Made by a program: the position numbers and the translations under genes. A model generated the notes under the pieces. It did not search any database, was not told where the DNA came from, and worked only from the letters and a program-made list of their open reading frames with translations. Below, one piece after another: positions 1,039 through 32,323 of a DNA stretch of 64,000 nt. The DNA comes from Alphaproteobacteria bacterium. GTDB taxonomy: Bacteria; Pseudomonadota; Alphaproteobacteria; UBA828. Within the stretch, counting starts at the first letter, position 1, and each line of letters starts with the position of its first letter. The stretch covers positions 352,001 to 416,000 of the forward strand of contig CAXXMU010000002.1 of assembly GCA_963667785.2 (NCBI GenBank), given 5' to 3'.

Positions 1039-1833
1039 GTGGAGCTCACCGTAAACGGCGCGCAAGCCTTCGCCGCGACCGGCGGGCGGCCCTTCGATCC
1101 CGCCCTGCCGGTGACGGTGTTCGTTCACGGCGCCGCCTTCGATCACACGGTCTGGAAGCTCCAGTCCCGTTACTTCGCCTGGCACGGCGGCAGCGTGCTC
1201 GCGGTCGACCTGCCTGCGCACGGCCGCTCGCACGGGCCGCCCAGGCCGTCGATTCCGGCGATGGTGGACTGGCTGATGGCGCTGCTGGACGAAGCGCAGG
1301 TCGGCGAAGCCGCGCTGGTCGGCCACAGCATGGGCGCGCTGGTCACGCTGGAGGCCGCGGCGCGCAACGCCTCGCGGGTCCGCAAGCTCGCGCTGCTCGG
1401 CGCCGCCGCCGCGATCCCGGTCAACGACCTGCTGCTCGGCACCTCGGCCGAGAACGATCACCATGCGCTGGAGCTGCTCACCGGCTGGGGCTACGGCCGT
1501 CGCGCGCACTATGGCGGCCATCGCATGCCGGGCATGTGGATGACCGGCGGTGGGTTGCGCACGCTGGAGCGTGCGGCGGCGGGCGTGCTGCACACCGATC
1601 TGGTGGCGACCAACGACTACGACGGCGGCGAGGCCGCTGCCGCGGCGGTCGCGTGTCCCGCGCTGGTGCTGATCGGCGCGCGCGACCTGATGACGCCGGC
1701 GAAGCGGGGGATGGCGCTGGCCGGCCTCATGGCAAGCGCGACCAGCGTGGTGATTCCCGAGGTCGGCCACATCATGCTCGACGAGGCGCCGGACGAGACC
1801 CTCGACGCGCTCCGGGATTTCCTCGCGGATTAG
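1039..1833 (+). CDS. alpha/beta fold hydrolase
   Basis: FVHGA oxyanion motif, DLPAHGRS, GHSMG nucleophile elbow, C-terminal GH; GTG start 2 nt after the metY stop. Confidence 0.85.
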   Translation: MELTVNGAQAFAATGGRPFDPALPVTVFVHGAAFDHTVWKLQSRYFAWHGGSVLAVDLPAHGRSHGPPRPSIPAMVDWLMALLDEAQVGEAALVGHSMGALVTLEAAARNASRVRKLALLGAAAAIPVNDLLLGTSAENDHHALELLTGWGYGRRAHYGGHRMPGMWMTGGGLRTLERAAAGVLHTDLVATNDYDGGEAAAAAVACPALVLIGARDLMTPAKRGMALAGLMASATSVVIPEVGHIMLDEAPDETLDALRDFLAD

Positions 1834-1978
1834 CGCGTTTCCGCTTCACACGGAAACGCGCTCGCTCTTTGTCGCTCACGGCAGCCGGCCTTCAGCCGGC
1901 GCCTCCGCGAGGGCGCCGCATGCGCGGCGGGCCGCAGTCGCGGCCTGTCGCGTGTCCGCCAAAAGCGGACACGCGCTA
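1831..1978. repeat. palindromic intergenic element (MITE/REP-like) with terminal inverted repeats; probable bidirectional terminator
   Basis: Begins TAGCGCGTTTCCGCTT and ends AAGCGGACACGCGCTA (inverted, 1 mismatch). Each end forms its own hairpin (GCGCGTTTCCG/CGGAAACGCGC and CGCGTGTCCGC/GCGGACACGCG). The terminal TAG and CTA are the stop codons of the two convergent genes. Confidence 0.65.
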
Positions 1979-2665
1979 AATCACCAGGCGGTAGCCGCCG
2001 CCCTCGGTGACCAGCAGGCGGGGATCGGAGGGCTCCGGCTCGATCTTCTGCCGCAGCCGGTAGATGTGGGTTTCCAGCGTGTGGGTGGCGACGTTGGCGT
2101 TGTAGCCCCACACCTCGCTCAGCAGCACGTCGCGGGCGATCGCCCGGTCGCGCGCCCGGTAGAGGTACTTGAGGATCGCCGCCTCCTTCTCGGTGAGCCT
2201 GATCTTGCCGGTGCCGTTCGGCCGGATCAGCAGCTTCGACGCCGGCCTGAAGGTGTACTGGCCGATGGTGAAGGTCGCGTCCTCGCTGTGCTCGTGCTGG
2301 CGAAGCTGGGCGCGGATGCGCGCGAGCAGCGCGCCGAGGCGGAAGGGCTTGGTGACGTAGTCGTTGGCGCCGGAATCGAGGCCGAGGATGGTGTCGGCCT
2401 CGCTGTCGGCGGCGGTCAGCATGATGATCGGCACGGCGATCCCGCTCCGGCGCACGAGCTTGCAGACCTCCCGGCCATCCATGTCGGGCAGCCCGATGTC
2501 CAGCAGGATCAGGTCGAAGCCCCCGCCCTTGACCGCTTCCAGCGCCTCCCGGCCGGTGGCCGCCTCGCTCGCCGCGAACTCCTCGTACATGTGGAGCTGC
2601 TCGGCCAAGGACCGGCGCAGCGCCTGGTCGTCGTCGACGATGAGGATGGTCTTGCGGGCGCTCAC
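1976..2665 (-). CDS. cenR: OmpR-family response regulator, CenR/OtpR-like
   Basis: Receiver (IVDDD, LLDIGLPD, GANDYVTKPF) plus winged helix with alphaproteobacterial CenR-type segments RAQLRQHEHSEDA and THTLETHIYRLRQKIEP; GTG start chosen. Confidence 0.8.
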   Translation of the reverse strand: MSARKTILIVDDDQALRRSLAEQLHMYEEFAASEAATGREALEAVKGGGFDLILLDIGLPDMDGREVCKLVRRSGIAVPIIMLTAADSEADTILGLDSGANDYVTKPFRLGALLARIRAQLRQHEHSEDATFTIGQYTFRPASKLLIRPNGTGKIRLTEKEAAILKYLYRARDRAIARDVLLSEVWGYNANVATHTLETHIYRLRQKIEPEPSDPRLLVTEGGGYRLVI

Positions 2666-2839
2666 GGCAGCGTTCCCATGGCGGCGTTCAGTCTTTCGCC
2701 GCACTATAGCACGACGCCGGCCCGTTGGAGGTGCCTGCGCAGGTGGCCGGCCTGCGGGCTGCCGGCATTCCCGCGCGGCGAGCGCCGTGATAGGGTGCGG
2801 CGAACTCTCCGGCGTTCACCCTATCAGGCGGGAATCATT

Positions 2840-3724
2840 ATGAAAGCGCTCCCCGCAACGCTTCTTGCGATCGCACTCGCGTCGACCCTTGCCGCCTGCG
2901 GGGGCGGGGGCAAGCGAGCGCCCAGCATCGAGGAAATCCGGGAGCTGACCGGCCTGTCCGCGCCGGCCGAGACGCCGGGGGCCCAGCGCGTGCGAGCGCC
3001 GGACATCGAAGCGCGCGCCGATTCCCTGATCCTGTCCACGGTACACGGGGAGACGAGCCTCGCCGAGGTTCCCACTTTTCGATTGGAGTCACGATGCAGC
3101 GGAACCCGGTGCACGATATCCGAGTCGAGCATCGGCCTCTCAGACACCATAGAGCTGTCCGACCTCGAGCCCGTGGAAGGCGCCGCCGACGCGATCGGTA
3201 CCAGGTACGGCATCACCCTGATGTCGCAGACCGCGGAGCTGATGGACGCGAGATTCGTTTCGTTCGGCGCGTGGATGGAGCACGGCGCATTCGCGGTCCA
3301 GACCGAGGACGGCACGCTTGAAGGGACCAGGATCAGCGCCCGCTACGCAGCGGCCGGGGGAGACCTCACGGGAGCGGCGCCGGCCGGGAGCGCAACCTGG
3401 CGCGGCCTCATGGTCGGAACGCCGGCCACGGGGAGCAGCCGCGGCGACCGGCTGCAGGGTATTGCGGCCCTGAACTACGACATGAATGCCGGCGGCGGGC
3501 TCGACGTCGCCTTCAGCAGCATCACGAACATCGAGCGCGGAACGGCGCACTCGACGGCCACCGTGATCTTCGCCGACGTGCCGATCGGGTCGGACGGGAC
3601 GTTCGAGACCGGCTTGGCCGGCAACCGCATCCAGGGCGGCTTCTACGGCCCCGGCCACGCCGAGGCGGCGGGCATCTTCGAGCAGTCGAACATCGTCGGC
3701 GCGTTCGGGGCGACGCTCCAGTAG
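2840..3724 (+). CDS. surface lipoprotein with transferrin-binding-protein-like C-terminal beta-barrel
   Basis: Signal peptide with lipobox LAAC followed by GGGG; C-terminal GGFYGPGHAEAAGIFEQSNIVGAFGA typical of TbpB-like barrels. Confidence 0.7.
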   Translation: MKALPATLLAIALASTLAACGGGGKRAPSIEEIRELTGLSAPAETPGAQRVRAPDIEARADSLILSTVHGETSLAEVPTFRLESRCSGTRCTISESSIGLSDTIELSDLEPVEGAADAIGTRYGITLMSQTAELMDARFVSFGAWMEHGAFAVQTEDGTLEGTRISARYAAAGGDLTGAAPAGSATWRGLMVGTPATGSSRGDRLQGIAALNYDMNAGGGLDVAFSSITNIERGTAHSTATVIFADVPIGSDGTFETGLAGNRIQGGFYGPGHAEAAGIFEQSNIVGAFGATLQ

Positions 3725-21565: not shown

Positions 21566-22969
21566 GTGCAGCATTTCCCGATCTTTCTCCGTCTCGCGGG
21601 CCGGCAGGTCGTGGTCTCCGGCGCCGGGCAGGCTGCGGTGGCCAAGCTGCGCCTGCTGCTCAAGACCGACGCCGAGATCACCGTATTCGGCCCCGACCCG
21701 GAACCGGACATCCTGTCTTGGCACCGCGAAGGTGCGTTGCGCCACGACGAGCGCCGCGTGGACGCCGGCGACCTCGACTGCGCGGTGCTCCTCTATTGCG
21801 CGAGCGACGATCCCGCCGACGATGCGCGCGCCGCCGCGCTGGCCCGCCGGCGACGAATCCCCGTCAACGTCGTCGACGATCTCGAAGGCAGCGACTTCAT
21901 CACGCCCGCCATCGTCGACCGCGACCCGGTCACGGTGGCGATCGGGACCGAGGGGACGGCCCCGGTGCTGGCGCGGAACCTCAAGGCGACACTCGAGGCC
22001 CAGCTGCCGGCGTCTCTGGGGCCGCTCGCTCGCATCGGCCAAGCGTTCCGGAGCAGGTGTGAGAGCGTACCCGCGGGCCGCACGCGACGGGCGCTCTGGT
22101 CCGAGTACTTCTTCCGGCGTGGCCCGCGCGGCTATGCCAGGGAGGGCGAGAAGGGCGCACGCGAAGCGCTCCGCTCGCTGCTTGACGAAGCCGCGAGTGC
22201 AACCCGCCCTCCGGGCCTGGTCTCCTTCGTGGGCGCGGGGCCGGGCGACCCGGAGCTGCTCACACTGAAGGCCCGCAACCTGCTGCACGAGGCGGACATC
22301 GTGGTGCACGACCGGCTGGTCTCCTCGCAGGTGCTCGAGCTTGCGCGGCGTGACGCGGAGCGGGTCTCAGCCGGCAAGTCGGGATACGGCCCGTCGTGGC
22401 CGCAGGCGCGAATCGACGCGCTGTTGGTCCAGCATGCCCGGGCGGGCAAGCATGTGGTCCGCCTCAAGTCCGGCGACCCGGCGGTGTTCGGCAGGCTGGA
22501 CGAAGAGATCGAGACGCTGGAGGCGGCTGGCATCCCGTGGGAGGTCGTTCCGGGAATCACGGCGGCCGCCGGCGCGGCGGCGGACATGGGGGTCTCTCTC
22601 GCGCGCCGCGGGCGCAACTCGGAGCTTCGTATCCTCACTGGCCGCGACGTTGAAGGCTTCGCCGAGCACGACTGGGCCGTCCTTGCCCGCCCTGGATCAG
22701 TCGCCGCGATCTACATGGGAAAGCGGGCGGCCGCTTTCCTGCGCGGGCGCCTGCTGATGCGCGGGGCCGCGCCATCGACGCCGTTGACGATCGTCGAGAA
22801 CGCTTCGCGCCGGGACAAGCGGATCGTCGCGACGACATTGCTCGGGCTGCCCGACGCGCTGGACGAAGCGCACCTTGCGGGACCGGTGGTGCTGATGCTC
22901 GGCATCCTGCCCCGCGATGCCATGAGCAAGGCGGAAACGGACTGCGCGGCCCAGCAGGAGGCGGTCTGA
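21566..22969 (+). CDS. cysG: siroheme synthase
   Basis: FPIFL N-terminus, DFITPAIVDR, GAGPGDPELLTLKA, RLKSGDP, VPGITAA. Confidence 0.93.
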   Translation: MQHFPIFLRLAGRQVVVSGAGQAAVAKLRLLLKTDAEITVFGPDPEPDILSWHREGALRHDERRVDAGDLDCAVLLYCASDDPADDARAAALARRRRIPVNVVDDLEGSDFITPAIVDRDPVTVAIGTEGTAPVLARNLKATLEAQLPASLGPLARIGQAFRSRCESVPAGRTRRALWSEYFFRRGPRGYAREGEKGAREALRSLLDEAASATRPPGLVSFVGAGPGDPELLTLKARNLLHEADIVVHDRLVSSQVLELARRDAERVSAGKSGYGPSWPQARIDALLVQHARAGKHVVRLKSGDPAVFGRLDEEIETLEAAGIPWEVVPGITAAAGAAADMGVSLARRGRNSELRILTGRDVEGFAEHDWAVLARPGSVAAIYMGKRAAAFLRGRLLMRGAAPSTPLTIVENASRRDKRIVATTLLGLPDALDEAHLAGPVVLMLGILPRDAMSKAETDCAAQQEAV

Positions 22970-23271
22970 TGGCCCGCGCCTTCAGGCCCTGCGTTCTGAC
23001 CGCGAACGACCTCTTCGACGGCGACGTGGTCTACCTCGCGCCGGACGGCGCCTGGACGCGCCGCCCGGGCGGCGCGCGCCTCTTCGAGGACGAGGCGGAG
23101 GCCAATCGCAGCCTTGCGGCGGCCGAAGCGCAGGAGGACGTCATCGTCGGCCCCTATCTGGCGGCCGCTGCGCCCGGAGGGCGTCAGGGCCCCAAACCGG
23201 TCCACGTGCGGGAGGTGCTGCGCGCGGCCGGGCCCTCCAACTACTGCCACGGCAAGCAGGCGGGGAGCTGA
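22969..23271 (+). CDS. DUF2849 family protein
   Basis: VLTANDLFDGDVVYL...VGPYL...REVLRAAGPS; typical position between cysG and cysI. Confidence 0.85.
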   Translation: MARAFRPCVLTANDLFDGDVVYLAPDGAWTRRPGGARLFEDEAEANRSLAAAEAQEDVIVGPYLAAAAPGGRQGPKPVHVREVLRAAGPSNYCHGKQAGS

Positions 23272-23274
23272 CCC

Positions 23275-24945
23275 GTGTACCGATACGACAGCTTCGACCG
23301 GGAATTCGTTCGCAATCGGGTCGCGCAGTTTCGCCAGCAGGTGGAGCGGCGGATCGACGGATCGCTCACCGAGGAAGAGTTCAAGCCGCTGCGGCTGATG
23401 AACGGGCTCTACCTGCAGCTGCACGCCTACATGCTGCGCGTGGCGATTCCCTACGGAACGCTCGACAGCCGCCAGATGCGGCAGCTGGCCCGAATCGCTG
23501 AGCGCTGGGACAAGGGCTACGGGCACTTCACCACCCGACAGAACGTCCAGTTCAACTGGCCTAGGTTGAAGGACGTGCCGGACATCCTCGATGCTCTCGC
23601 GGACGTGGAGATGCATGCGATCCAGACATCCGGGAACTGCGTCCGCAACGTCACCGCCGACCATTTCGCCGGCGCGGCCGCCGACGAGATCGCCGATCCC
23701 CGCCCGACCGCCGAGCTGCTCCGGCAATGGTCGACGGATCACCCGGAATTCGCGTTCCTGCCCAGAAAATTCAAGATCGCGGTGAGCGGCTCCCCGGTCG
23801 ACCGCGCCGTGACACGCGCGCACGACATCGGCATCCGTATCGTCCGCAACGGCGCGGGTGAGATCGGCTACGAGGTCTCGGTCGGCGGCGGGCTCGGGCG
23901 CACCCCGGTGATCGGAACGGTCATCCGCGACTTCCTGCCCGAGGGAGATCTGCTCCCCTACGTCGAGTCCATCCTGCAGGTCTACAACGCCATCGGGCGC
24001 CGCGATAACAAGTTCAAGGCGCGCATCAAGATCACGGTGGGCGAGCACGGGATCGAGGCATTCCGGCAGCGCGTCGAGAAACGCTTCCGGATTCAGCGGA
24101 GGGCATTCGAGGGTGCGGACCGGGCGCTCTTCGAGGACATCCGCACGATGTTCGCAGCGCCGGCATACATCGAGGCGCCGACCGGAGCGTTCGACGCGGC
24201 GCTCGCGCGCGATCCGGCGTTCCGGTCATTCGTCGACATCAATCTGCATCCGCACCGGAATCCGGACTACGTAATCGTCACCGTCTCGCTCAAGGCCCAC
24301 GGAGCGACGCCGGGCGATGCCACCGCGGAGCAGATGCGCGTCATCGCCGACCTGGCGGAGCGCTACGGCCATGACGAGATCCGGATCAGCCACGAGCAGA
24401 ACTGCATCCTGCCCCACGTGCACAGGTGCCACGTGCCGGCGGTGCATGCGGCGTTGCGAAAGGCGGGGCTCGCCACCGCCAACGTCGGGCTGGCATCGGA
24501 CATCATCGCCTGCCCGGGGATGGATTACTGCAATCTGGCCACCGCCCGCTCCATCCCCATCGCCCAGGGAATCGCCACCCGTGTGAAGGAGCGCGGGGAC
24601 GAGCGCCTTGTCGGCGATCTCAAGATCAAGATTTCCGGCTGCGTCAATGCCTGCGGCCACCACCATGTCGGCCATATCGGCATTCTCGGCCTCGATCGCG
24701 CCGGCGCCGAGAACTACCAGATCACGCTCGGCGGTGACGGAACCGAGACCGCTGCCCTCGGCGAACGCACCGGCCCGGGCTTTGCCTCAGATGACGTCGT
24801 CCCTGCCGTTGACCGGCTGATCGACACCTACCTCGAGCTCAGGTCAGACGAAGACGAAGCCTTTCTCGCGACCTACCGGCGCGTCGGCATGCAGCCGTTC
24901 AAGGCGGCGCTCTATCCCGACGCCGCACTGGCCACAGGAGGCTAG
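23275..24945 (+). CDS. cysI: sulfite/nitrite reductase hemoprotein
   Basis: TTRQN, LPRKFKI, CPGMDYC...SGCVNAC siroheme/[4Fe-4S] ligands. Confidence 0.93.
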   Translation: MYRYDSFDREFVRNRVAQFRQQVERRIDGSLTEEEFKPLRLMNGLYLQLHAYMLRVAIPYGTLDSRQMRQLARIAERWDKGYGHFTTRQNVQFNWPRLKDVPDILDALADVEMHAIQTSGNCVRNVTADHFAGAAADEIADPRPTAELLRQWSTDHPEFAFLPRKFKIAVSGSPVDRAVTRAHDIGIRIVRNGAGEIGYEVSVGGGLGRTPVIGTVIRDFLPEGDLLPYVESILQVYNAIGRRDNKFKARIKITVGEHGIEAFRQRVEKRFRIQRRAFEGADRALFEDIRTMFAAPAYIEAPTGAFDAALARDPAFRSFVDINLHPHRNPDYVIVTVSLKAHGATPGDATAEQMRVIADLAERYGHDEIRISHEQNCILPHVHRCHVPAVHAALRKAGLATANVGLASDIIACPGMDYCNLATARSIPIAQGIATRVKERGDERLVGDLKIKISGCVNACGHHHVGHIGILGLDRAGAENYQITLGGDGTETAALGERTGPGFASDDVVPAVDRLIDTYLELRSDEDEAFLATYRRVGMQPFKAALYPDAALATGG

Positions 24946-24946
24946 C

Positions 24947-25390
24947 GTGGAACGCGGGAGCCCCAGGATTCTCGTCCGCGACTCCGGGTTCCAGGACGAC
25001 GACTGGCGCGGCGAATTCATCCAGTGGAGCGGAGAGGGCGACCGTTCCGCTCTGCCTCACGGTGTCGCGTTGGATGTCGAGAACACCGTGCCGGCTGAGG
25101 ACATCGTGCCCCTCTTCGGGCGCATCGCTCTGATCCGCATCGCCTTTCCCTCGCATATGGACGGCCGGGGGTTCTCGCTGGCCCGTTATCTGCGCCTGCT
25201 CGGCTACCGCGGTCGGCTTCGTGCATCCGGCCGCTTCCTCGCTGATCAATACGCCATGGCCCGGCGAAGCGGCTTCGACGAGGTCGAAATCGACTCGACG
25301 CTCGCCGAGCGGCAGCCGGAAGAGCAGTGGCTGTTTCGCGCGAATTGGCGGACACACGACTATCGGGAGCGGCTGGGCCGGCGCCTGTAA
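24947..25390 (+). CDS. DUF934 family protein
   Basis: FP...DGRGFSLAR.LR..GYRG.LRA.G...DQ...ARRSGFD. Confidence 0.85.
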   Translation: MERGSPRILVRDSGFQDDDWRGEFIQWSGEGDRSALPHGVALDVENTVPAEDIVPLFGRIALIRIAFPSHMDGRGFSLARYLRLLGYRGRLRASGRFLADQYAMARRSGFDEVEIDSTLAERQPEEQWLFRANWRTHDYRERLGRRL

Positions 25391-26082
25391 GGCGTACGCG
25401 GGCGTGGAGTTCGAGTATCACACCACCGGGGGCGAGGTGACGCGGCTCGAGTTGGGGCTCACCGCCGAAGACGTAACGGAGCCTGGAGCGCAACTGGCGC
25501 AGCTCGGCGAGGAACCGTGCTCGACCGAGCACTGACGGGGAAGCCGGGCGGAGGGCGATGTTCGGTGGCGAGACGTTCATCGTGCGAATCGACGAGGACG
25601 CCTTGGCCCCGCGCGGGCATGGCCGTGGCGTAGGTACGTGGCGGGAAAGCGGCTCCGCCGGCGCATTGACCGGTGCCGAGCCGTTACCAGCTGTTGCGAT
25701 GAGGGCGTAGGCGGCGAGCCGCGTCTCGTGCAGTTCAATGGCGGTGCTGGCCCTCGCGGGTGGACGCCTGCGCGGCATCTGGTATTCGTTCGGCGAAGCC
25801 GTGGTAGTTTGAGTGAGCGGCGGTTGTGTACGACCGCGCTGACCGGGAACCTCTTGGCCGCGCACCCGATCTCCTGCGCAGGCTCGGCGGTTCCACGGCT
25901 TGGCCGAACGGATTCCGCCGCAGAAGTCAGAAATGGGCTGGAGTTTACTTCTTCAAGCCTACTTGGTGTGTATGTTCCCAAATCCGCTGTCGCGGTCACA
26001 CTCGCGCTGTCTTCCAACCCATTGAGTTGAAACGACTATTCGTGTCAGCGCGGCAGGCCATACTAGTGGTGAGAAATACGGG

Positions 26083-26790
26083 CTAGTTCTTGACGAAGTG
26101 ACCCAGGTAATGGCGGCTTTCCGCTCGAAGGTCGCCCGGACTTACGCGAGCATCGTGAACAAGACGCTCCGTACAGCAGACATACGCGACGTTCGCCGCC
26201 TGAAGCATACGCAAACAGGGAACACCCCGCGCGTTCCGGATATATGTGTCGGCGATTTCGCAGGGATGGAGGCGTTCCGGTGACGCCACGCACTCTGCCA
26301 TTTCTTCGATCGGCACGGGCACCACGTAGACATGCCTGTCTCCAGGTCCCCTGTTGACGACTATCCGGTTCCGGCTCTTCCACCTCGAGGACAGGTCGAG
26401 TCCATCCCACGTGTCGAGGTGCAACCCCAGCCTCAGACCCGATCCGCGATCCACCGTGATCGAAGGATGAGTCCCGTGATCGACGGAAGCGTCGAGCGCA
26501 ACAACCGGCGACAGGCTGAGAAATGGCGTGAAGTCCAATTCCCTCTCGGAATTCACGTCGCAAGGGAAGAGCGCAACGAAGTCCAGCTCGTCCTCGATCG
26601 TCAACGCGTCGAGAGAGGCGGTGTATTGTTCGATCTCACGTTGGCCCAGCCTTCGGAAGTCCACGGGCAACCTGGCGTCGGGTCGGTAATCGACGGCGTC
26701 CGGACAAGACTCGTGCGCACAGACGAGCGTTTCGCTGAACGAAATCAGATCGCGCACGTCGCCGAGCCTGCGGTCGACGTAGATTCTCAT
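26083..26790 (-). CDS. putative Fe(II)/2-oxoglutarate-dependent oxygenase (RiPP tailoring candidate)
   Basis: HxD in GLHLDTWD, distal His in LVHD, beta-strand-rich segments in between; directly downstream of the rSAM gene on the same strand. Confidence 0.55.
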   Translation of the reverse strand: MRIYVDRRLGDVRDLISFSETLVCAHESCPDAVDYRPDARLPVDFRRLGQREIEQYTASLDALTIEDELDFVALFPCDVNSERELDFTPFLSLSPVVALDASVDHGTHPSITVDRGSGLRLGLHLDTWDGLDLSSRWKSRNRIVVNRGPGDRHVYVVPVPIEEMAECVASPERLHPCEIADTYIRNARGVPCLRMLQAANVAYVCCTERLVHDARVSPGDLRAESRHYLGHFVKN

Positions 26791-26889
26791 CGAGGACTTG
26801 CTGATACCGGCGCGAGAACGCGTTGACGCCGCGAATTACCTGGATTCATAAGGGCCCCCATGCCGCAGACCACAGGCATGTCGACTGCC

Positions 26890-28092
26890 TCAGATCAGGT
26901 CCGCGCCGATCTTTTCCAACGGCTCGCCGTGCAAAGCCAAATACTTCAACAAGTGGGTGTAGAACCTGTCCAATCCTTCACAATAGACGGTGGGGTTGTC
27001 GAATCCATTGCTGCTCGCATACCGGTGTACCGGCTGACCGCTGCCACAGACGTCGCGCCAACAACAATCCGAACACGCAGATGCAGGTGTCTTCTTGAAA
27101 TATTCGAATTCGTGAAACAATGGATCCTGAATGATTTCCTCCAGGCTGAAGCTCTTCAGATCCCTGTACTCGTATCCGCTCCAGTACTTCGTGGATCTCA
27201 GCGTGTCGTCCGGCCCGACTCCGCCATCGGACGATACCGTAAGCAGAAGATAGTCCGGGTCACCTCTCCCGGCAGCGAAAAGGAAATTCCCGCTTCCGTA
27301 GAGTCGCGCCAGAAAGTGATCGATGAACCTGACGCCGACAGATTCCTCGTCATTCACCATCTGGTCGAAAATCTCGATCAGGAAATCCCCGTACGCTCCG
27401 GCATCGCCACCGAAATTGTCGTGGTTCAGGTCGGGGAGCAGGAAGTCGATGAGCCCCACGTGCAGGTCGCGGCGAAAGTGTTCGTAGATTTCCCTGGGAT
27501 CGAATTTCTCTCCGATCACAGCCAGGACCATGGGAGGCTGATGCAGGTGCTCCTGACATAGCGCCAGGCCGCGAACGGTCGCCCGGTAGGACGACCTGCC
27601 ATGATGATCGAGACGATGGGCGTCGTTGTGCACCTGCGCGCCGTCGAGGCTGACACCCACCTCCACGCCATGTCTGTTGAGAATCTCTATCCACTCGAGA
27701 TCGATCAGCATGCCGTTGGTCTGGATCGTCAGCGACAGGTCGACGATGCCCGCCAGACCCGATCTGATCTCATGGCAGATACCGTCGAGCCGGGCCTTCG
27801 GCATCAGGAGAGGTTCGCCGCCGTGCAGGTGGATCGCTATTCGTTGCAGCTCGTACTCTTCGGAGAATTGTCTGAGCCGCTGCACCAGCAGTGCGACCGT
27901 GTCATCCGATATGAACGCCGCATGACTCTTGTAGCTGTCGTCGCCCGCATTGAAGAAATAGCAATAGTCGCAATCCAGGTTACAGCGTTCGGTAATTTTC
28001 AATATGACTTCCAGCGTTTTGAGCTTGCGGAAGTTCACCGTTCTCCTATCGGTGGCGACAGGTGTCTTCGAGTCTTGCATCGCTGTGGCCAT
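26890..28092 (-). CDS. radical SAM/SPASM peptide maturase, XyeB-like three-residue cyclophane-forming enzyme
   Basis: LEVILKITERCNLDCDYCY (CxxxCxxC), HGGEPLL, QTNG, SLDG, DFLLPDLNHD, DDTLRST, C-terminal CxxCxxxxxCxxG...YC cluster; no N-terminal RRE domain. Confidence 0.88.
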   Translation of the reverse strand: MATAMQDSKTPVATDRRTVNFRKLKTLEVILKITERCNLDCDYCYFFNAGDDSYKSHAAFISDDTVALLVQRLRQFSEEYELQRIAIHLHGGEPLLMPKARLDGICHEIRSGLAGIVDLSLTIQTNGMLIDLEWIEILNRHGVEVGVSLDGAQVHNDAHRLDHHGRSSYRATVRGLALCQEHLHQPPMVLAVIGEKFDPREIYEHFRRDLHVGLIDFLLPDLNHDNFGGDAGAYGDFLIEIFDQMVNDEESVGVRFIDHFLARLYGSGNFLFAAGRGDPDYLLLTVSSDGGVGPDDTLRSTKYWSGYEYRDLKSFSLEEIIQDPLFHEFEYFKKTPASACSDCCWRDVCGSGQPVHRYASSNGFDNPTVYCEGLDRFYTHLLKYLALHGEPLEKIGADLI

Positions 28093-28440
28093 TGGAGTCA
28101 GCTCGAACGCGTCGCCGTCGCATGCGGGCAATTCCTGCCGAATGGCAGATCGTCGAGGCCTGCATTGAACGCGCGCCCCGGCGACGCGGCGAACTCAAGC
28201 GAGGCGACGGCTCTGTTCGGGGAACGATACCGCGCGTCTTTCAAGGTATGCGCCCGCCCGCCTGCCTCGGGCCGTCCGGGTCGAATTCCGCACTTGGTGT
28301 GCAAAGCGCCTGCCGACCGCCGCCAAGCCCCGCGGCCGTCGAGCGACCCCTTCGTCCGCAAAAGCCGATAACTCCCTCGAGCCTCTCCGGCTTCAGGAGC
28401 AGGCAACAGGCCCTTAACGCAGGCGACTACCCGCCGCTGC

Positions 28441-28713
28441 CTAATCGGTCACGGACGGCGCAGAGACGAAATTGCCGCCCGACCCGGGATGATTTGCCGC
28501 CACCACGGACGGCGCCGAGACGAAGTTGCCGCCCGACCCGGGATGATTTGCCGCCACCGCGGACGGCGCCGAGACGAAGTTGCCGCCCGATCCCGGATAG
28601 CCTGGGATCTTCTGCCGCAGATTCGGGCTGATCGCCTTACCTGCCGCTGCCCTCTGGTCCTCGGCCGAGATCCCCAGCTTCTCACGGAGCTTGCGTACTT
28701 TCAGGTCTTCCAT
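28441..28713 (-). CDS. multicore RiPP precursor peptide (about 38-aa leader plus 3 tandem cassettes)
   Basis: GAGGTG RBS; charged leader, then YPGSGGNFVSAPSAVAAN / HPGSGGNFVSAPSVVAAN / HPGSGGNFVSAPSVTD; upstream of the rSAM gene on the same strand. Confidence 0.85.
   Translation of the reverse strand: MEDLKVRKLREKLGISAEDQRAAAGKAISPNLRQKIPGYPGSGGNFVSAPSAVAANHPGSGGNFVSAPSVVAANHPGSGGNFVSAPSVTD
28450..28599. repeat. 54-bp tandem repeat, about 2.8 copies, encoding the precursor cassettes
   Basis: Units 28450-28503, 28504-28557 and partial 28558-28599; few, largely synonymous differences. Confidence 0.92.
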
Positions 28714-28928
28714 GAGTCACCTCGTGGTCCGTGTGATAAATGGCAATCGGGAGCCTCTACTCTACACCCGGATCTCTCGATACAGAGAATTTATTTCCTA
28801 TAGATGCTCGGCACTTTTCTTATGCGGGCTCGGCTCGTGCGGCGATCCGCTCTGGCTCGGAGACTCGCCAAGCCTGCATCGTCGATCGCGAAGGCACGGT
28901 CCTGGGAGAACGCGCACTCGACGGGGCG

Positions 28929-29423
28929 TCAAAAGATGATGCTCACCGCCCCGTGCCAGGAGAGGTCCTCCAGATCCAGCACCGCGCGGCGGTACGCTAT
29001 CCTCAAGTCCCCGCCGTCCCTCCTCAGGATGTACTCGACGGTGCCGACGTAGGGCGCTCCTTCGCCGCTACGGAACCGGTAGACGAGGACGTTTGCGGAG
29101 ACCGACAGGTGCCCCTCGTCGGTCTCTTCGACGCGCACGTTGGAAACGAAGCGGCGGGTCCGCGACCGCGGGCGCTCGCGGTGGGAATAGCGGCTGTTCA
29201 AGCGCGCCGCTCGAGCGCGCAACCGGATGATATCGTCGTCGATGAACACCAGATCGCGCTTAGGGTCCCCTTCCGGCAAGTCCGTGGAGGGAACCACGTA
29301 CCGAGCGTCGTCCGTGAACAGGCCAACCCACTCCTCCAGCCTCCATTCGTCCAGAAGCGCCGCTTCCCTGAACAGGAACTCCTCGACCGTCGCCCGCAAC
29401 GAGCACCCGCTGTCGGCCGTCAT
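28929..29423 (-). CDS. aromatic ring-hydroxylating dioxygenase beta subunit
   Basis: VEEFLFREAALLDEWRLEEW...RSRTRRFVSNV. Confidence 0.9.
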   Translation of the reverse strand: MTADSGCSLRATVEEFLFREAALLDEWRLEEWVGLFTDDARYVVPSTDLPEGDPKRDLVFIDDDIIRLRARAARLNSRYSHRERPRSRTRRFVSNVRVEETDEGHLSVSANVLVYRFRSGEGAPYVGTVEYILRRDGGDLRIAYRRAVLDLEDLSWHGAVSIIF

Positions 29424-30778
29424 CGCTCGCCGGTCCGACAGTGCCCAGGGTCGCCGGCCTCCGAAGAAGCCGCTGCGGCTTGCGATGTTGCGGGCGGCCC
29501 ATCCTGTACGTCGGTCGTATCGAGGCCCTGCATATTCGCGTGCCACTGCCGCCAGAATCCCCGCATTTGGAGCTCGTCTGCCGTTCCCGGACAGGGCGTC
29601 AGCATGCCCCTCGAGATGTCGGACCACTCGGCTTCGGTAGCGCGGAAGCCGGCCTGACAGGATTCCAGCGCTTCCACGTCATCCGGTGTGGCAAAGCCGC
29701 CCGGTCCGAGGAAGGTCAGGTAGCTGTCGAGTCGGGTGGCCAGCACCGCGCCCGACTCCTCTCTGGGCACGAGGTGCCAGGCCGTGACCTCCATTCTGTC
29801 CGGTGACAGGGGCTCGATATACCTGATGCTGATCGCCACGAAGTCCATGATCAGCAGGTTCGGATAGACGAGCAGGTTTCGAGAGGTGTCGGCCATCCGG
29901 TAGGCACGGTCTTCTCCGTATGTCTGCACCAGCCGCTCGCGCACCCGCGCTATGCGCTCCCTGGCCTCCTCGCCGAATATCGGGTGCCAGCGGGCGATGG
30001 GGCGGCCGTTCCTGGCTATGTTCTCCGATACGCAGTGGCCGTTGCCCAAGGCCCTTCCTGCGCCGGGGGGACGGGCAGCTAGCGTGTCCCCGCTGTCGTC
30101 TGTCCCGAGGCCGGTCATATAATCCACGTAGGTCCGATGCGTCGGGATCAGGTGGTATCCATCGAGGCTGTTCTCGGCCAACAGCTTCCAGTTGGCCTTC
30201 ATGGCGTACTTGTTGGAACCGGGAATCACCCGCATCCCTTCCTCGGCCTGGTCGACGACCAGGTCAAGGTAGTCTCTGGCCCCCGCCAGGTAAGTGACCA
30301 GGTCCTCGCCCTGCGCGTTGAAGCTCACGAAGTAGAAGCCCCGGTAGTTGTCCACCCTGGGTGGCTTCTTCAGGCCGAGTTCGCTCGGATCGAAGTCGGG
30401 GCCATAGGCCTCTCTTCTGGGAACGCCGATCAGCTCGCCGCGGGTGTCGAAAGTCCAGGCGTGATAGAAGCACCGCAGAACCTCGGCATTCCCGGAATCG
30501 CGGCGGCATATCGTGGCACCCCGGTGCGGGCAGGAGTTGAAGAACACCCGTATCTGCCCGTCTTTGCCGCGAACAAAGAAGAGCGGTCGGCCAGCGACCG
30601 TGCGGCGGCGGTAGTCTCCGGGCCTCTCCACCTCCGATTCGTGTCCCAGGTAGATCCAGCATCTGTCGAAGATCAGTTCCCGTTCCCGCTGGAACAGATC
30701 GGAGGACGTCATGCACGACCGATGGACCCTGAAGACCCCGCGCTTCCGGTCGTCGATGATTAGGTCCTGGATGTCCAT
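29420..30778 (-). CDS. aromatic ring-hydroxylating dioxygenase alpha subunit (p-cumate/benzoate-type)
   Basis: CPHRG...CFYHAW Rieske motif, NWKLLAENSLDGYHLIPTH, PDD iron ligand region. Confidence 0.9.
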   Translation of the reverse strand: MDIQDLIIDDRKRGVFRVHRSCMTSSDLFQRERELIFDRCWIYLGHESEVERPGDYRRRTVAGRPLFFVRGKDGQIRVFFNSCPHRGATICRRDSGNAEVLRCFYHAWTFDTRGELIGVPRREAYGPDFDPSELGLKKPPRVDNYRGFYFVSFNAQGEDLVTYLAGARDYLDLVVDQAEEGMRVIPGSNKYAMKANWKLLAENSLDGYHLIPTHRTYVDYMTGLGTDDSGDTLAARPPGAGRALGNGHCVSENIARNGRPIARWHPIFGEEARERIARVRERLVQTYGEDRAYRMADTSRNLLVYPNLLIMDFVAISIRYIEPLSPDRMEVTAWHLVPREESGAVLATRLDSYLTFLGPGGFATPDDVEALESCQAGFRATEAEWSDISRGMLTPCPGTADELQMRGFWRQWHANMQGLDTTDVQDGPPATSQAAAASSEAGDPGHCRTGER

Positions 30779-30855
30779 GAGATCACCCGTATGCCCCGAA
30801 TCTCGATTTACAAAAGGATGCCGGTGTTTCGTCGCAAGCGACTCTCGCAGCAGCG

Positions 30856-31134
30856 CGATTCGACCTGAAGGTCCTGTCGCCTCGCGAGGCGACAAACGCC
30901 AACATAGCGCCGCCGCCTTCGCAGGTCACAACGATCCACTGCGCTCTCGCCGGGCTCGGCGTCGCGCTCGTCCCGGCGATGACGGCGCATCGCCACGTGG
31001 ATGCCGGGCGGCTTCGGTGCGTCGAGGCACCGGAAGGGCAGATGGATCGCCCTTGCGCCGTGGAGCATCCGCACGCCATCGCGGGCTGGCCCATCGTCGG
31101 CGGCCCAGTAGAATGCTTCGAGCGCTCCGCGTGA
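30856..31134 (+). pseudogene. degenerate LysR-family regulator remnant
   Basis: Start-less frame reads FDLKVL...CALAGLGVALVPAMTAHRHVDAGRLRCV, resembling the LysR effector-domain C-terminus; divergent from the dioxygenase. Confidence 0.4.
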
Positions 31135-31309
31135 GCGTCTCGAGTGTCAATCGCCGAGCCTGGCGAAGCCGAACTGGGGCGACCCCGAGGGTATGACCTG
31201 AGCGGTCGCCCTGTTCCATGAAGTAGCGCTATCCAGTCGCTCGCGACCGCAGGAAGGTGGAGACCGGTCCCGGTCTCGACATCGTCGCGAGCCAATCAGG
31301 GAGACACTT

Positions 31310-32323
31310 ATGCGCATCTACAACTACAAGAAGGGGACGGCGCGACGGCTCGCGGTGGAGGATGACAACCAGCTGGTCGACTTGATCGATGCGCTGGGCG
31401 GCCAGCGCACGCTCACCGCGCGGGACCGCGACGCGCTCGCCGACACGATCTCCTTCATCGAATCAGGAGATCGGGGCCTGCGCCTCGCGCGCAAGGCGAT
31501 CCGCGAAAGCCGCGCCGCCGGCAAGGGCCGCCGCAGCCTGGCCCGGGCCACGCTGTTCGCGCCCGTCGAGCCCGCGGTCATCCTGTGTTCGGGAGAGAAC
31601 TACTGGGATCACCGGGACGAGAAGCCGGTGGTCGAGGGCAAGGAGCCCGAGTTCTTCATCAAGCTCCAGCAATGCGCCAACGGCCCCTACGACGACATCG
31701 TCTACGAGCCGAAGATCACCCGGAAGCTGGACTACGAGACCGAGCTTGCCATCGTCATCGGCAAGGGCGGGCGCCACATCCCCAAGCGGGATGCGATGAA
31801 GCACATATTCGGCTTCACCGTCATGAACGACGTCACGGCCCGGGACCGGCAGGTCAAGATGCGGCCCGACGGCACCTCGCAATACGCGCTCGGACCGGGC
31901 AAGAACTTCGATACCTCAGCCCCGCTCGGCCCCTGCATCGTCACGACGGACGAGCTTGGCAACCCGCAGAAGCTGGCGCTCCGCACCTGGGTCAACGACG
32001 AGCTGCGCCAGAACAACACCACCGCGACGATGATCTGGAACGTCCGGGAGCTGGTCCATTTCTTTTCCGGTTTCGTCACCCTGAAACCGGGTTCGGTGAT
32101 TTCGACGGGCACGCCGGGCGGAACCGCGTGGGGAACCGATCCCGAGCTGGGCGGGCGCGGTGCCCGGAGCGGACGCGACGACATCGCGCTCGCCGGGGGC
32201 TATCTCAAGGTCGGCGACGTGGTCACCAGCGAGATCGAAGGCATCGGCCGCCTGCGCGCCAGGGTCGTGCGGTCCGGGCATTCGCGGAGGAAGAGCTCGG
32301 CCGGCGCCGCCCGTGACAGGTGA
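31310..32323 (+). CDS. fumarylacetoacetate hydrolase family protein
   Basis: GENYWDH, LDYETELAIVIG, NDVTARD, GKNFDTSAPLGP, ISTGTPGG. Confidence 0.9.
   Translation: MRIYNYKKGTARRLAVEDDNQLVDLIDALGGQRTLTARDRDALADTISFIESGDRGLRLARKAIRESRAAGKGRRSLARATLFAPVEPAVILCSGENYWDHRDEKPVVEGKEPEFFIKLQQCANGPYDDIVYEPKITRKLDYETELAIVIGKGGRHIPKRDAMKHIFGFTVMNDVTARDRQVKMRPDGTSQYALGPGKNFDTSAPLGPCIVTTDELGNPQKLALRTWVNDELRQNNTTATMIWNVRELVHFFSGFVTLKPGSVISTGTPGGTAWGTDPELGGRGARSGRDDIALAGGYLKVGDVVTSEIEGIGRLRARVVRSGHSRRKSSAGAARDR

Follow-up and report, generated by a model that had tools for sequence, protein, structure and literature searches.

The cassette and its genes

The stretch of DNA considered here, hereafter the window (64,000 nt; positions 352,001 to 416,000 of contig CAXXMU010000002.1, assembly GCA_963667785.2), comes from a member of the alphaproteobacterial lineage UBA828. 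At 26083-28713 it holds three co-oriented minus-strand open reading frames (ORFs) that encode a short precursor peptide, a radical S-adenosylmethionine (rSAM)/SPASM enzyme and a 235-aa third protein. All three are placed and oriented as in an earlier note on this DNA, which had proposed a multicore precursor, an XyeB-like cyclophane enzyme and a putative oxygenase as a new family of peptides that are ribosomally synthesised and then post-translationally modified (RiPPs). We consider it very likely that this cassette of three genes and 2.6 kb is of the triceptide type, triceptides being defined by a cross-link that runs to the C-beta of X3 in an aromatic-X-X motif. In silico, the locus has the sequence-level features of that class: an rSAM enzyme with a CX3CX2C motif and SPASM-type Cys residues, and an adjacent precursor with aromatic-X-X motifs. 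The features of the locus are collected in Table 1.

Table 1. Features of the cassette and its immediate surroundings, in positions of the window
Feature	Position	Strand	Basis or remark
Precursor peptide gene, 90 aa	28441..28713	-	Leader of ~37 aa, then three 18-aa repeats; ORF call
Leader region of the precursor, residues 1-37, MEDLKVRKLREKLGIS...	28603..28713	-	Kept across 22 locus precursors and 95 clusters
Core unit 1, GGNFVSAP, residues 43-50	28564..28587	-	
Core unit 2, GGNFVSAP, residues 61-68	28510..28533	-	
Core unit 3, GGNFVSAP, residues 79-86	28456..28479	-	
Radical SAM/SPASM peptide maturase, 396 aa, triceptide-type cyclophane synthase homologue	26890..28080	-	Pfam, NCBIfam, homologue lengths
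CX3CX2C radical SAM cluster motif, C33/C37/C40	27961..27984	-	100% conserved in 56 close and 61 distant homologues
C-terminal Cys-rich SPASM-type region, C336/C339/C345/C367	26980..27075	-	In all aligned homologues; weak Pfam SPASM
MicC-family Fe(II)/alpha-ketoglutarate oxygenase homologue, 235 aa	26083..26790	-	Profile against PDB, predicted structure
H124-x-D126 iron-ligand segment of the third protein	26413..26421	-	Invariant in 129/129; aligned to HID of MicC
H212, distal His of the triad	26155..26157	-	Invariant; aligned to MicC IIHDG motif
R152, predicted alpha-ketoglutarate C5-carboxylate binder	26335..26337	-	Conserved in at least 90%; aligned to MicC R188
Rieske ring-hydroxylating oxygenase, alpha 29420-30895 and beta 28929-29423	28929..30895	-	Pfam and NCBIfam
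Block shared with locus L001 at 88-94% DNA identity, 4.7 kb, different flanks	26076..30799	.	blastn

A family of tandem-repeat precursors

The C-terminal part of the precursor is a true tandem repeat. Tandem Repeats Finder reports a period of 54 nt at 28450-28596 (2.7 copies, 95% matches, score 264), a separate repeat search gives three 54-nt copies at 100%, 96% and 72%, and the corresponding protein repeats (residues 39-56, 57-74 and 75-90) contain GGNFVSAPS in every one, which confirms the three near-identical cassettes described in the earlier note. The window precursor has no Pfam match and matches no NCBIfam family at E <= 0.1; five of its relatives, compared with the NCBIfam precursor models, gave no credible match even at E <= 10.

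Homologues of this peptide accompany the enzyme closely. In a scan that took a single genome for each species, 22 related loci proved to have a close rSAM orthologue, all in metagenome-assembled genomes (MAGs) labelled Alpha- or Gammaproteobacteria, with one Thermodesulfobacteriota. The earlier note had named rSAM homologues without similar adjacent peptides as evidence that would speak against its proposal; a precursor homologue lies directly upstream of the rSAM gene in 22 of the 22 loci, so that this check leaves the proposal standing. In the protein database we found 95 precursor cluster representatives, 94 of which carry between one and five copies of GGNF(V/I/L/A)S (one copy in 6 clusters, two in 23, three in 52, four in 12 and five in 1); the remaining cluster resembles an out-of-frame version. 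Since G, G, N and S are invariant by construction when units are counted with this strict pattern, a loose pattern was used for composition. It recovers 265 units, of which 261 are GGNFxS (x being V, I, L or A), three are GGHFVS and one is GGNLVS, such that F-x-S is present in 264 of the 265 recognised units and GG precedes the motif in all 265. The unit is followed by Ala in 257 of 261 cases and then by Pro in 223 of 261. Units are spaced 10 to 32 residues apart by variable linkers, and 24 of the 95 precursors end exactly at F(V/I)SAP.

The earlier note had proposed F-x-S as the ring motif, and F-x-S is the conserved aromatic motif of the family: the Phe of F-x-S accounts for 264 of the 400 aromatic residues that lie past residue 36. 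F-x-S is also the motif type of the Fxs system. The note had also described a second triplet in each cassette, H/Y-P-G, and allowed for a His/Tyr-Gly ring there. Both triplets are indeed present in the window precursor, but H/Y-P-G is not conserved in later repeats; across the family, an aromatic residue stands four residues ahead of GG in 82 of 94 first units as against 27 of 167 later units. We read the aromatic residue ahead of the first GG as a probable feature of the leader-core junction, with no second ring. A His/Tyr-Gly ring is unlikely, because the triplet is not conserved and because the triceptide link goes to the C-beta of the third residue, which Gly lacks.

An rSAM enzyme outside the named triceptide maturase families

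The rSAM gene can be read from a TTG as an ORF of 413 aa (26890-28131), with a further possible start at 28092; the ATG at 28080 is the most likely start, for a protein of 396 aa, since lengths of 391-396 aa prevail among the 59 close homologues. The protein matches Pfam Radical_SAM (E 1.4e-14) and, weakly, SPASM (E 0.011). Its three best NCBIfam models are YhhB (NF041707, 280.8 bits), XyeB (TIGR04496, 273.3 bits) and FxsB (TIGR04269, 263.6 bits), all with full-length alignments and E values of 1e-78 to 1e-83. The motifs on which the earlier note had based its assignment (LEVILKITERCN, DFLLPDLNHD and DDTLRST) are present, with residues within them kept in close and distant homologues, and the enzyme is, as the note had recognised, a homologue of the XyeB/YhhB/FxsB-type maturases. 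The scores nonetheless fall below the curated cut-offs of these models (445 bits for the YhhB equivalog domain, 450 for the XyeB equivalog and 370 for the FxsB subfamily domain), and the GrrM/OscB model (TIGR04261) gives 108 bits against a cut-off of 310. The curated thresholds place the enzyme outside XyeB, YhhB, FxsB and GrrM/OscB.

A search of 5.8 billion proteins returned 59 rSAM clusters at 65-95% identity, followed by an abrupt drop to at most 41%. Eight Cys residues (C33, C37, C40, C102, C336, C339, C345 and C367) are conserved among the aligned homologues, 56 of them close and 61 distant. The enzyme thus belongs to the triceptide-maturase superfamily as a clade of its own.

At one of the 22 loci, L022, a frameshift near residue 107 has to be assumed for the rSAM orthologue (L022:5001-6191) to read through, so that either the assembly is wrong there or the gene is broken; the precursor and third gene of that locus look intact. 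The genome from which the window derives also encodes a second, canonical triceptide-type enzyme of 726 aa (contig C1:921599-922663; L024, ORF 1435-3615). This protein scores above the cut-offs for FxsB (514.7 against 370 bits) and YhhB (489.4 against 445 bits), is only 31% identical to the window rSAM enzyme, and has an aKG-HExxH peptide beta-hydroxylase domain fused to it (TIGR04267, residues 542-714). The deep family profile of the third protein of the cassette (profile A2, below) has no similarity to the fusion protein (probability 0.2); its C-terminal domain is of the HExxH type and not of the MicC type.

The third protein is a predicted MicC-family oxygenase

The third gene lies downstream of the rSAM gene in 20 of the 22 loci; it is absent from L002 and L009, where no remnant was found even at E <= 10. 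Neither the window protein nor eight of its stand-alone relatives has a Pfam or NCBIfam match. An exhaustive profile search recovered 986 relatives at E <= 0.001, mostly 250-300 aa long and matching in their C-terminal half. An alignment of 129 sequences shows no variation at G122, H124, D126, N146, T207 or H212, and at least 90% conservation of R152. When a profile of the window's own clade (A1) was compared with all PDB sequences, the single match was the oxygenase MicC (9vkm_A, E 1.3e-6), with the HxD and HD motifs aligned; the deep family profile A2 matches MicC over its full length at E 4.3e-58. Counting from the aligned H160 of MicC, R152 corresponds to MicC R188, the R of its EDRYF segment.

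An AlphaFold (AF2) model built from the deep alignment A2 reached a predicted local distance difference test (pLDDT) score of 94.4. It superseded a first model from the shallow alignment A1 (pLDDT 70.8, below 50 in the HxD segment), which had no Foldseek match at E <= 0.001. The best fold match of the A2 model is the Kdo hydroxylase KdoO (Foldseek E 8e-4; Z 8.5, root-mean-square deviation 4.0 A over 166 aligned residues), followed by TlxIJ (Z 8.3) and then by structures that are nearly all alpha-ketoglutarate oxygenases or cupins; a Z near 8 is middling, and the fold call leans on structure and sequence evidence together. On this combined evidence, the third protein is a remote homologue of MicC (PDB 9VKM) with a predicted double-stranded beta-helix fold, of the Fe/alpha-ketoglutarate type. 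A predicted complex of the rSAM enzyme with the third protein scored 0.00, which speaks neither for nor against binding.

The characterised member of this family acts in the pathway of the triceptide minviopeptin. As its report describes (PNAS 2026; PMC12912966), MicC is strictly alpha-ketoglutarate dependent and is abolished by ethylenediaminetetraacetic acid (EDTA); it breaks a Gly N-C-alpha bond at the S/GGFTK junction, strictly at Gly, the G8A variant being uncut, and leaves Ser7 as a C-terminal amide and a downstream piece with an oxidised N-terminus. It does not add +16 Da, and its triad (H160-D162-H253) is essential, together with R188 and K266. Its authors likewise found KdoO as a structural match, note that MicC homologues are often associated with rSAM enzymes, and place those homologues in Actinomycetota and Bacteroidota (PMC12912966). 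The earlier note had called the third gene a putative alpha-ketoglutarate oxygenase and had expected a +16 Da product. The Fe/alpha-ketoglutarate type is borne out by the invariant triad, the homology to MicC, and the model with its fold matches, but the expected mass signature may be wrong, given that characterised MicC cleaves Gly N-C-alpha.

MicC-like domains also occur next to cyclophane rSAM enzymes of another kind. Three members of the MicC-like family (P0127, P0175 and P0225) are C-terminal fusions to GrrM/OscB cyclophane rSAM enzymes (370-390 bits against the cut-off of 310). Among 80 fetched GrrM-like metagenome loci, eight hold a MicC-like domain, either in the same frame as the rSAM gene or an overlapping one, or at the end of a neighbouring protein of 854-865 aa. 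Two such neighbours, L025:2568-5165 and L026:3378-5942, directly follow a GrrM-like rSAM gene, and their C-terminal MicC-like domain matches profile A2 at E 1e-67 to 1e-70. L030:276-647, L036:3501-3917, L063:3515-3871 and L027:3657-3974 are candidate precursors encoded upstream of GrrM/OscB rSAM genes; they have a twin-arginine-like signal leader and Gly-rich repeats (such as GGFRNGG, GGFVNGG or WHNWHN), and their loci also hold a MicC-like domain, in the same frame as the rSAM gene or an overlapping one. At L030, L036 and L063, the upstream peptides are repeats of GG-aromatic-x-x.

A proposed pathway and its alternatives

We propose that the cassette is probably a three-gene unit for a triceptide-class RiPP that works as follows. 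The leader would dock on the rSAM enzyme, which at each F-x-S would abstract a hydrogen from the Ser C-beta and join that carbon to the Phe ring, with a change of -2 Da per unit and three rings in the window precursor. The cyclised peptide would then be the substrate of the MicC-like oxygenase. Of the reactions open to it, the likeliest would, by analogy with MicC, be hydroxylation at the C-alpha of a Gly in the invariant GG ahead of each ring, after which the N-C-alpha bond would break spontaneously; scission would free single ring-bearing units from the multi-copy precursor in the absence of a protease, each upstream fragment ending in an amide and each downstream fragment starting with a glyoxylyl/oxalyl group.

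The steps of this pathway are not equally secure. By analogy with known triceptides, a Phe-Ser C-beta ring is reasonably likely, because F-x-S fits the aromatic-X-X motif of the class and because a His-to-Ser ring on an HAS motif is documented. Gly-directed cleavage by the third protein may be the most likely single reaction, because MicC cuts at a GG before a Phe ring motif, GG precedes 265 of 265 units and no peptidase was identified among the annotated neighbour families or among the window ORFs scanned around the cassette. We nevertheless hold it only tentatively, at somewhat less than even chances, because the similarity to MicC is remote, the ADP-ribosylation that precedes MicC is missing, GG is kept where the enzyme is absent, and GG may serve the rSAM enzyme.

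Several observations, these among them, weigh against the pathway as drawn. The rSAM enzyme lies below the cut-off of every named family, so family membership does not tell what its specificity is. The window clade is 18-29% identical to the wider MicC-like family, and at 235 aa its proteins are shorter than typical members, which are about 250-300 aa. By count from the alignments, the position of the essential MicC K266 is taken by S225, and the only basic neighbour is R226, conserved to at least 90% within the clade. The precursors of L002 and L009, loci that lack the third gene, still keep GG, and 72 of the 80 GrrM-type loci have no MicC-like domain in the flanks fetched; GG may serve the rSAM enzyme instead of the oxygenase. 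GrrM precursors are Gly-rich as a family. The MicC substrate needed prior ADP-ribosylation (PMC12912966), and an ADP-ribosyltransferase is not present at the cassette; the authors of that report also expect functional diversification among MicC homologues. Lastly, each of the reaction steps is inferred.

The main rival to Gly scission is plain hydroxylation, in which the MicC-like oxygenase would modify a side chain (+16 Da), for example of Asn, Val/Ile, Pro or the ring, and host peptidases would release the units. Most of the Fe/alpha-ketoglutarate enzymes that match the fold hydroxylate their substrates (KdoO, FIH, JMJD5/7 and prolyl hydroxylases), and oxygenase hydroxylases are in use in triceptide pathways, such as YhhC, which gives beta-hydroxy-Asp (PMC12186529). 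The conservation of Asn in 261 of 265 units would also fit a hydroxylase, as would the divergence of the window clade from MicC and the diversified functions anticipated in the MicC paper. Hydroxylation would, however, leave aside that the sole characterised member of the family cleaves at the Gly of a GG ahead of a cyclophane motif (PMC12912966), that the layout of GG and then ring is found in every one of the 265 recognised units, and that no peptidase gene was seen among the annotated neighbour families. We regard hydroxylation as possible, if doubtful.

Taken to its fullest extent, the Gly-scission pathway would make the MicC-like enzyme an iterative "oxidative protease" that releases identical glyoxylyl/oxalyl cyclophane peptides from a precursor of one to five copies, with no peptidase; in its boldest form, a Rieske oxygenase would in addition oxidise the strained Phe ring. 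This seems to us rather unlikely, and we know of no Rieske oxygenase in print that acts in a RiPP pathway, although no search was aimed at this point. A Rieske alpha/beta pair does lie directly upstream of the cassette and co-oriented with it, and such a pair is found within 5 kb in 11 of the 22 loci (L001-L006, L009, L011, L012, L021 and L022) as well as in the window. A link between the pair and the cassette is possible. An alternative is therefore a functional unit larger than three genes, in which the Rieske subunits, and perhaps a YciI-like protein and an NCS2-family permease, work on the peptide or on its product, with oxidation of the Phe ring as one example. The linkage of the Rieske pair appears to have been kept through rearrangement, because its positions and orientations vary between loci; the YciI-like gene and the permease gene are each found in 17 of the 22 loci, in several arrangements; and in a blastn comparison with L001, the one congener that has the cassette, alignment is confined to 26076-30799, which spans the Rieske pair and the cassette, neither flank being related. 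By contrast, the Rieske genes are not in the flanks fetched of the other 11 loci, including all eight low-GC loci (L013-L020), and neither the YciI-like gene nor the permease gene is in the window. The Rieske subunits are closest to benzoate, anthranilate and phenylpropionate dioxygenases in NCBIfam, far below those cut-offs, and thus most resemble dioxygenases of small aromatic acids; no reductase or ferredoxin partner was seen. Moreover, the linkage counts are not independent, since related genomes share synteny and kinship inflates them. We consider the larger unit improbable.

More improbable still is that the rSAM enzyme makes no Phe-to-Ser C-beta cyclophane and instead uses another partner or atom, over-oxidises Ser to aminomalonate (a reported side reaction of cyclophane rSAM enzymes; PMC12186529) or epimerises a residue: the enzyme is below every curated cut-off and its clade is set apart by the drop to at most 41% identity, but all three of the models that it matches best, each over the full length, describe cyclophane-forming maturases, F-x-S fits the definition of the class, and a His-to-Ser ring on HAS has been documented.

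Genomic surroundings, apparent mobility and habitat

The annotated gene families common to at least five loci are YCII, the NCS2 permease, Rieske alpha/beta, SHMT and Yip1, and one representative had no Pfam match. Apart from the permease just named, no peptidase or transporter was recognised among these annotated families, the remaining clusters lying outside the annotation, and none was recognised among the ORFs scanned at 17.6-39.6 kb of the window. The flanking genes on both sides look like housekeeping genes: a siroheme synthase, a sulfite reductase and a DUF934 protein on one side, and an FAA-hydrolase family protein and a Sir2 protein on the other. The first three form a sulfur-assimilation set at 21566-25390 on the strand opposite to the cassette, consisting of a CysG-like siroheme synthase, a 556-aa sulfite reductase hemoprotein-like ORF (named from its translation alone) and DUF934. 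The ~690 nt from DUF934 to the end of the third gene (25391-26082) contain no convincing ORF, Rfam match or repeat; in the congener L001, YciI-like and permease genes stand in this place.

The cassette looks horizontally mobile between unrelated bacteria, as judged from its composition and distribution. Its G+C content is 0.598, compared with 0.693 for the window; in high-GC hosts, the cassette lies 3-9 G+C points under its flanks, and in low-GC hosts it matches them. Among 20 other genomes of the genus, a close rSAM orthologue was found in one, L001. Horizontal transfer would fit the contrast in G+C, this patchy distribution within the genus, and the presence of the L001 block in unrelated flanks. 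A search for mobile-element ends around the 4.7-kb block yielded short repeats only; the best of these, a pair of 14-nt inverted arms at 25879 and 31149, was taken as chance.

The spacer between the precursor and rSAM genes (28081-28445) was considered as the site of an RNA element or attenuator. Its fold z-score of 0.74 is no better than that of shuffles, a consensus scan found no promoter-like sites and two terminator-like sites against 3.1 expected, and an Rfam scan of 25000-31500 gave zero matches; the candidate was rejected on these grounds. The cassette is covered by contigs of two runs from one study that are labelled sponge metagenome, and by contigs of two runs of a second study, some of the covering pieces having zero differences from the window; no RNA run was listed. 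In contigs of runs X1 and X2, which bear the sponge metagenome label, 14 other letters stand in place of the 208-nt spacer stretch 28116-28323. The spacer between the precursor and rSAM genes is thus much shorter in a near-identical strain, and it is dispensable. The sponge-labelled contigs, together with the apparent mobility of the cassette, hint at a role in that community.

Comparison with known systems

In the literature searched, the core motif strings appeared only in unrelated contexts and we found no description of this precursor family, although supplementary precursor-family tables to the 2022 landscape paper, or Figs S52-S53 to the MicC paper, could already list the clade. The claim of the earlier note that this is a new RiPP family is too strong, because multi-motif precursors and tailoring by oxygenases are already known in triceptides. 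The cassette represents instead a compact putative new subfamily, with multi-copy cores, within the triceptide class.

The triceptide systems closest to it are those of XyeB, YhhB and FxsB, the enzymes that form three-residue cyclophanes (3-CyFEs), with which it shares a homologous rSAM/SPASM maturase, a precursor directly upstream and several aromatic-X-X motifs per peptide. It differs from them in that its enzyme lies under all three cut-offs and is at most 41% identical to proteins outside its own clade, that its precursor matches no known model and is a true tandem repeat of one to five copies, and that its partner oxygenase is predicted to be of the MicC type and not of the HExxH type. 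The GrrM/OscB systems (TIGR04261) resemble it in their multi-repeat precursors, in the GG that flanks the aromatic motifs (L030, L036 and L063), and in that some of the enzymes have a fused MicC-like domain. By contrast, the window rSAM enzyme reaches little more than a third of the bit score at which that model accepts members, and the GrrM/OscB precursors have a signal-peptide-like leader and F/W-x-N or F-R-x motifs.

Minviopeptin (MicA/B/C/D; 9VKM; PMC12912966) likewise combines a cyclophane rSAM enzyme with a MicC-family oxygenase, and the triad and alpha-ketoglutarate-binding Arg of that oxygenase are conserved here; in both systems, GG stands directly ahead of a Phe ring motif (GGFTK there, GGNFVS here). 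MicB, however, is PasB-like and daropeptide-related, whereas the window rSAM enzyme is XyeB/YhhB/FxsB-like. The mic cluster includes an ADP-ribosyltransferase on which MicC depends, and the cassette has none; MicA consists of three different motifs, and the window precursor is a tandem repeat. The MicC homologues reported come from Actinomycetota and Bacteroidota, and the cassette loci from alphaproteobacterial, gammaproteobacterial and Thermodesulfobacteriota MAGs, with remote similarity between the two groups of sequences.

Among strained macrocyclic peptides, triceptides form a class that is still young and is expanding quickly, and the cassette adds to it a well-populated branch that is absent from the libraries and papers searched. 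With three genes in 2.6 kb and no transporter or protease identified, it should be easy to express, and the GG before the ring of each repeat offers a clean test of whether MicC-type enzymes release several products per precursor; if they do, an enzyme of this kind would be of use as a traceless way to cut and amidate peptides. Set against the systems above, four things appear to be new: the rSAM clade; a precursor family for which neither a model nor a relevant paper was found; the pairing, within a proteobacterial cassette of three genes, of an XyeB/YhhB/FxsB-like enzyme with a MicC-type oxygenase; and the strict tandem-repeat design of the precursor.

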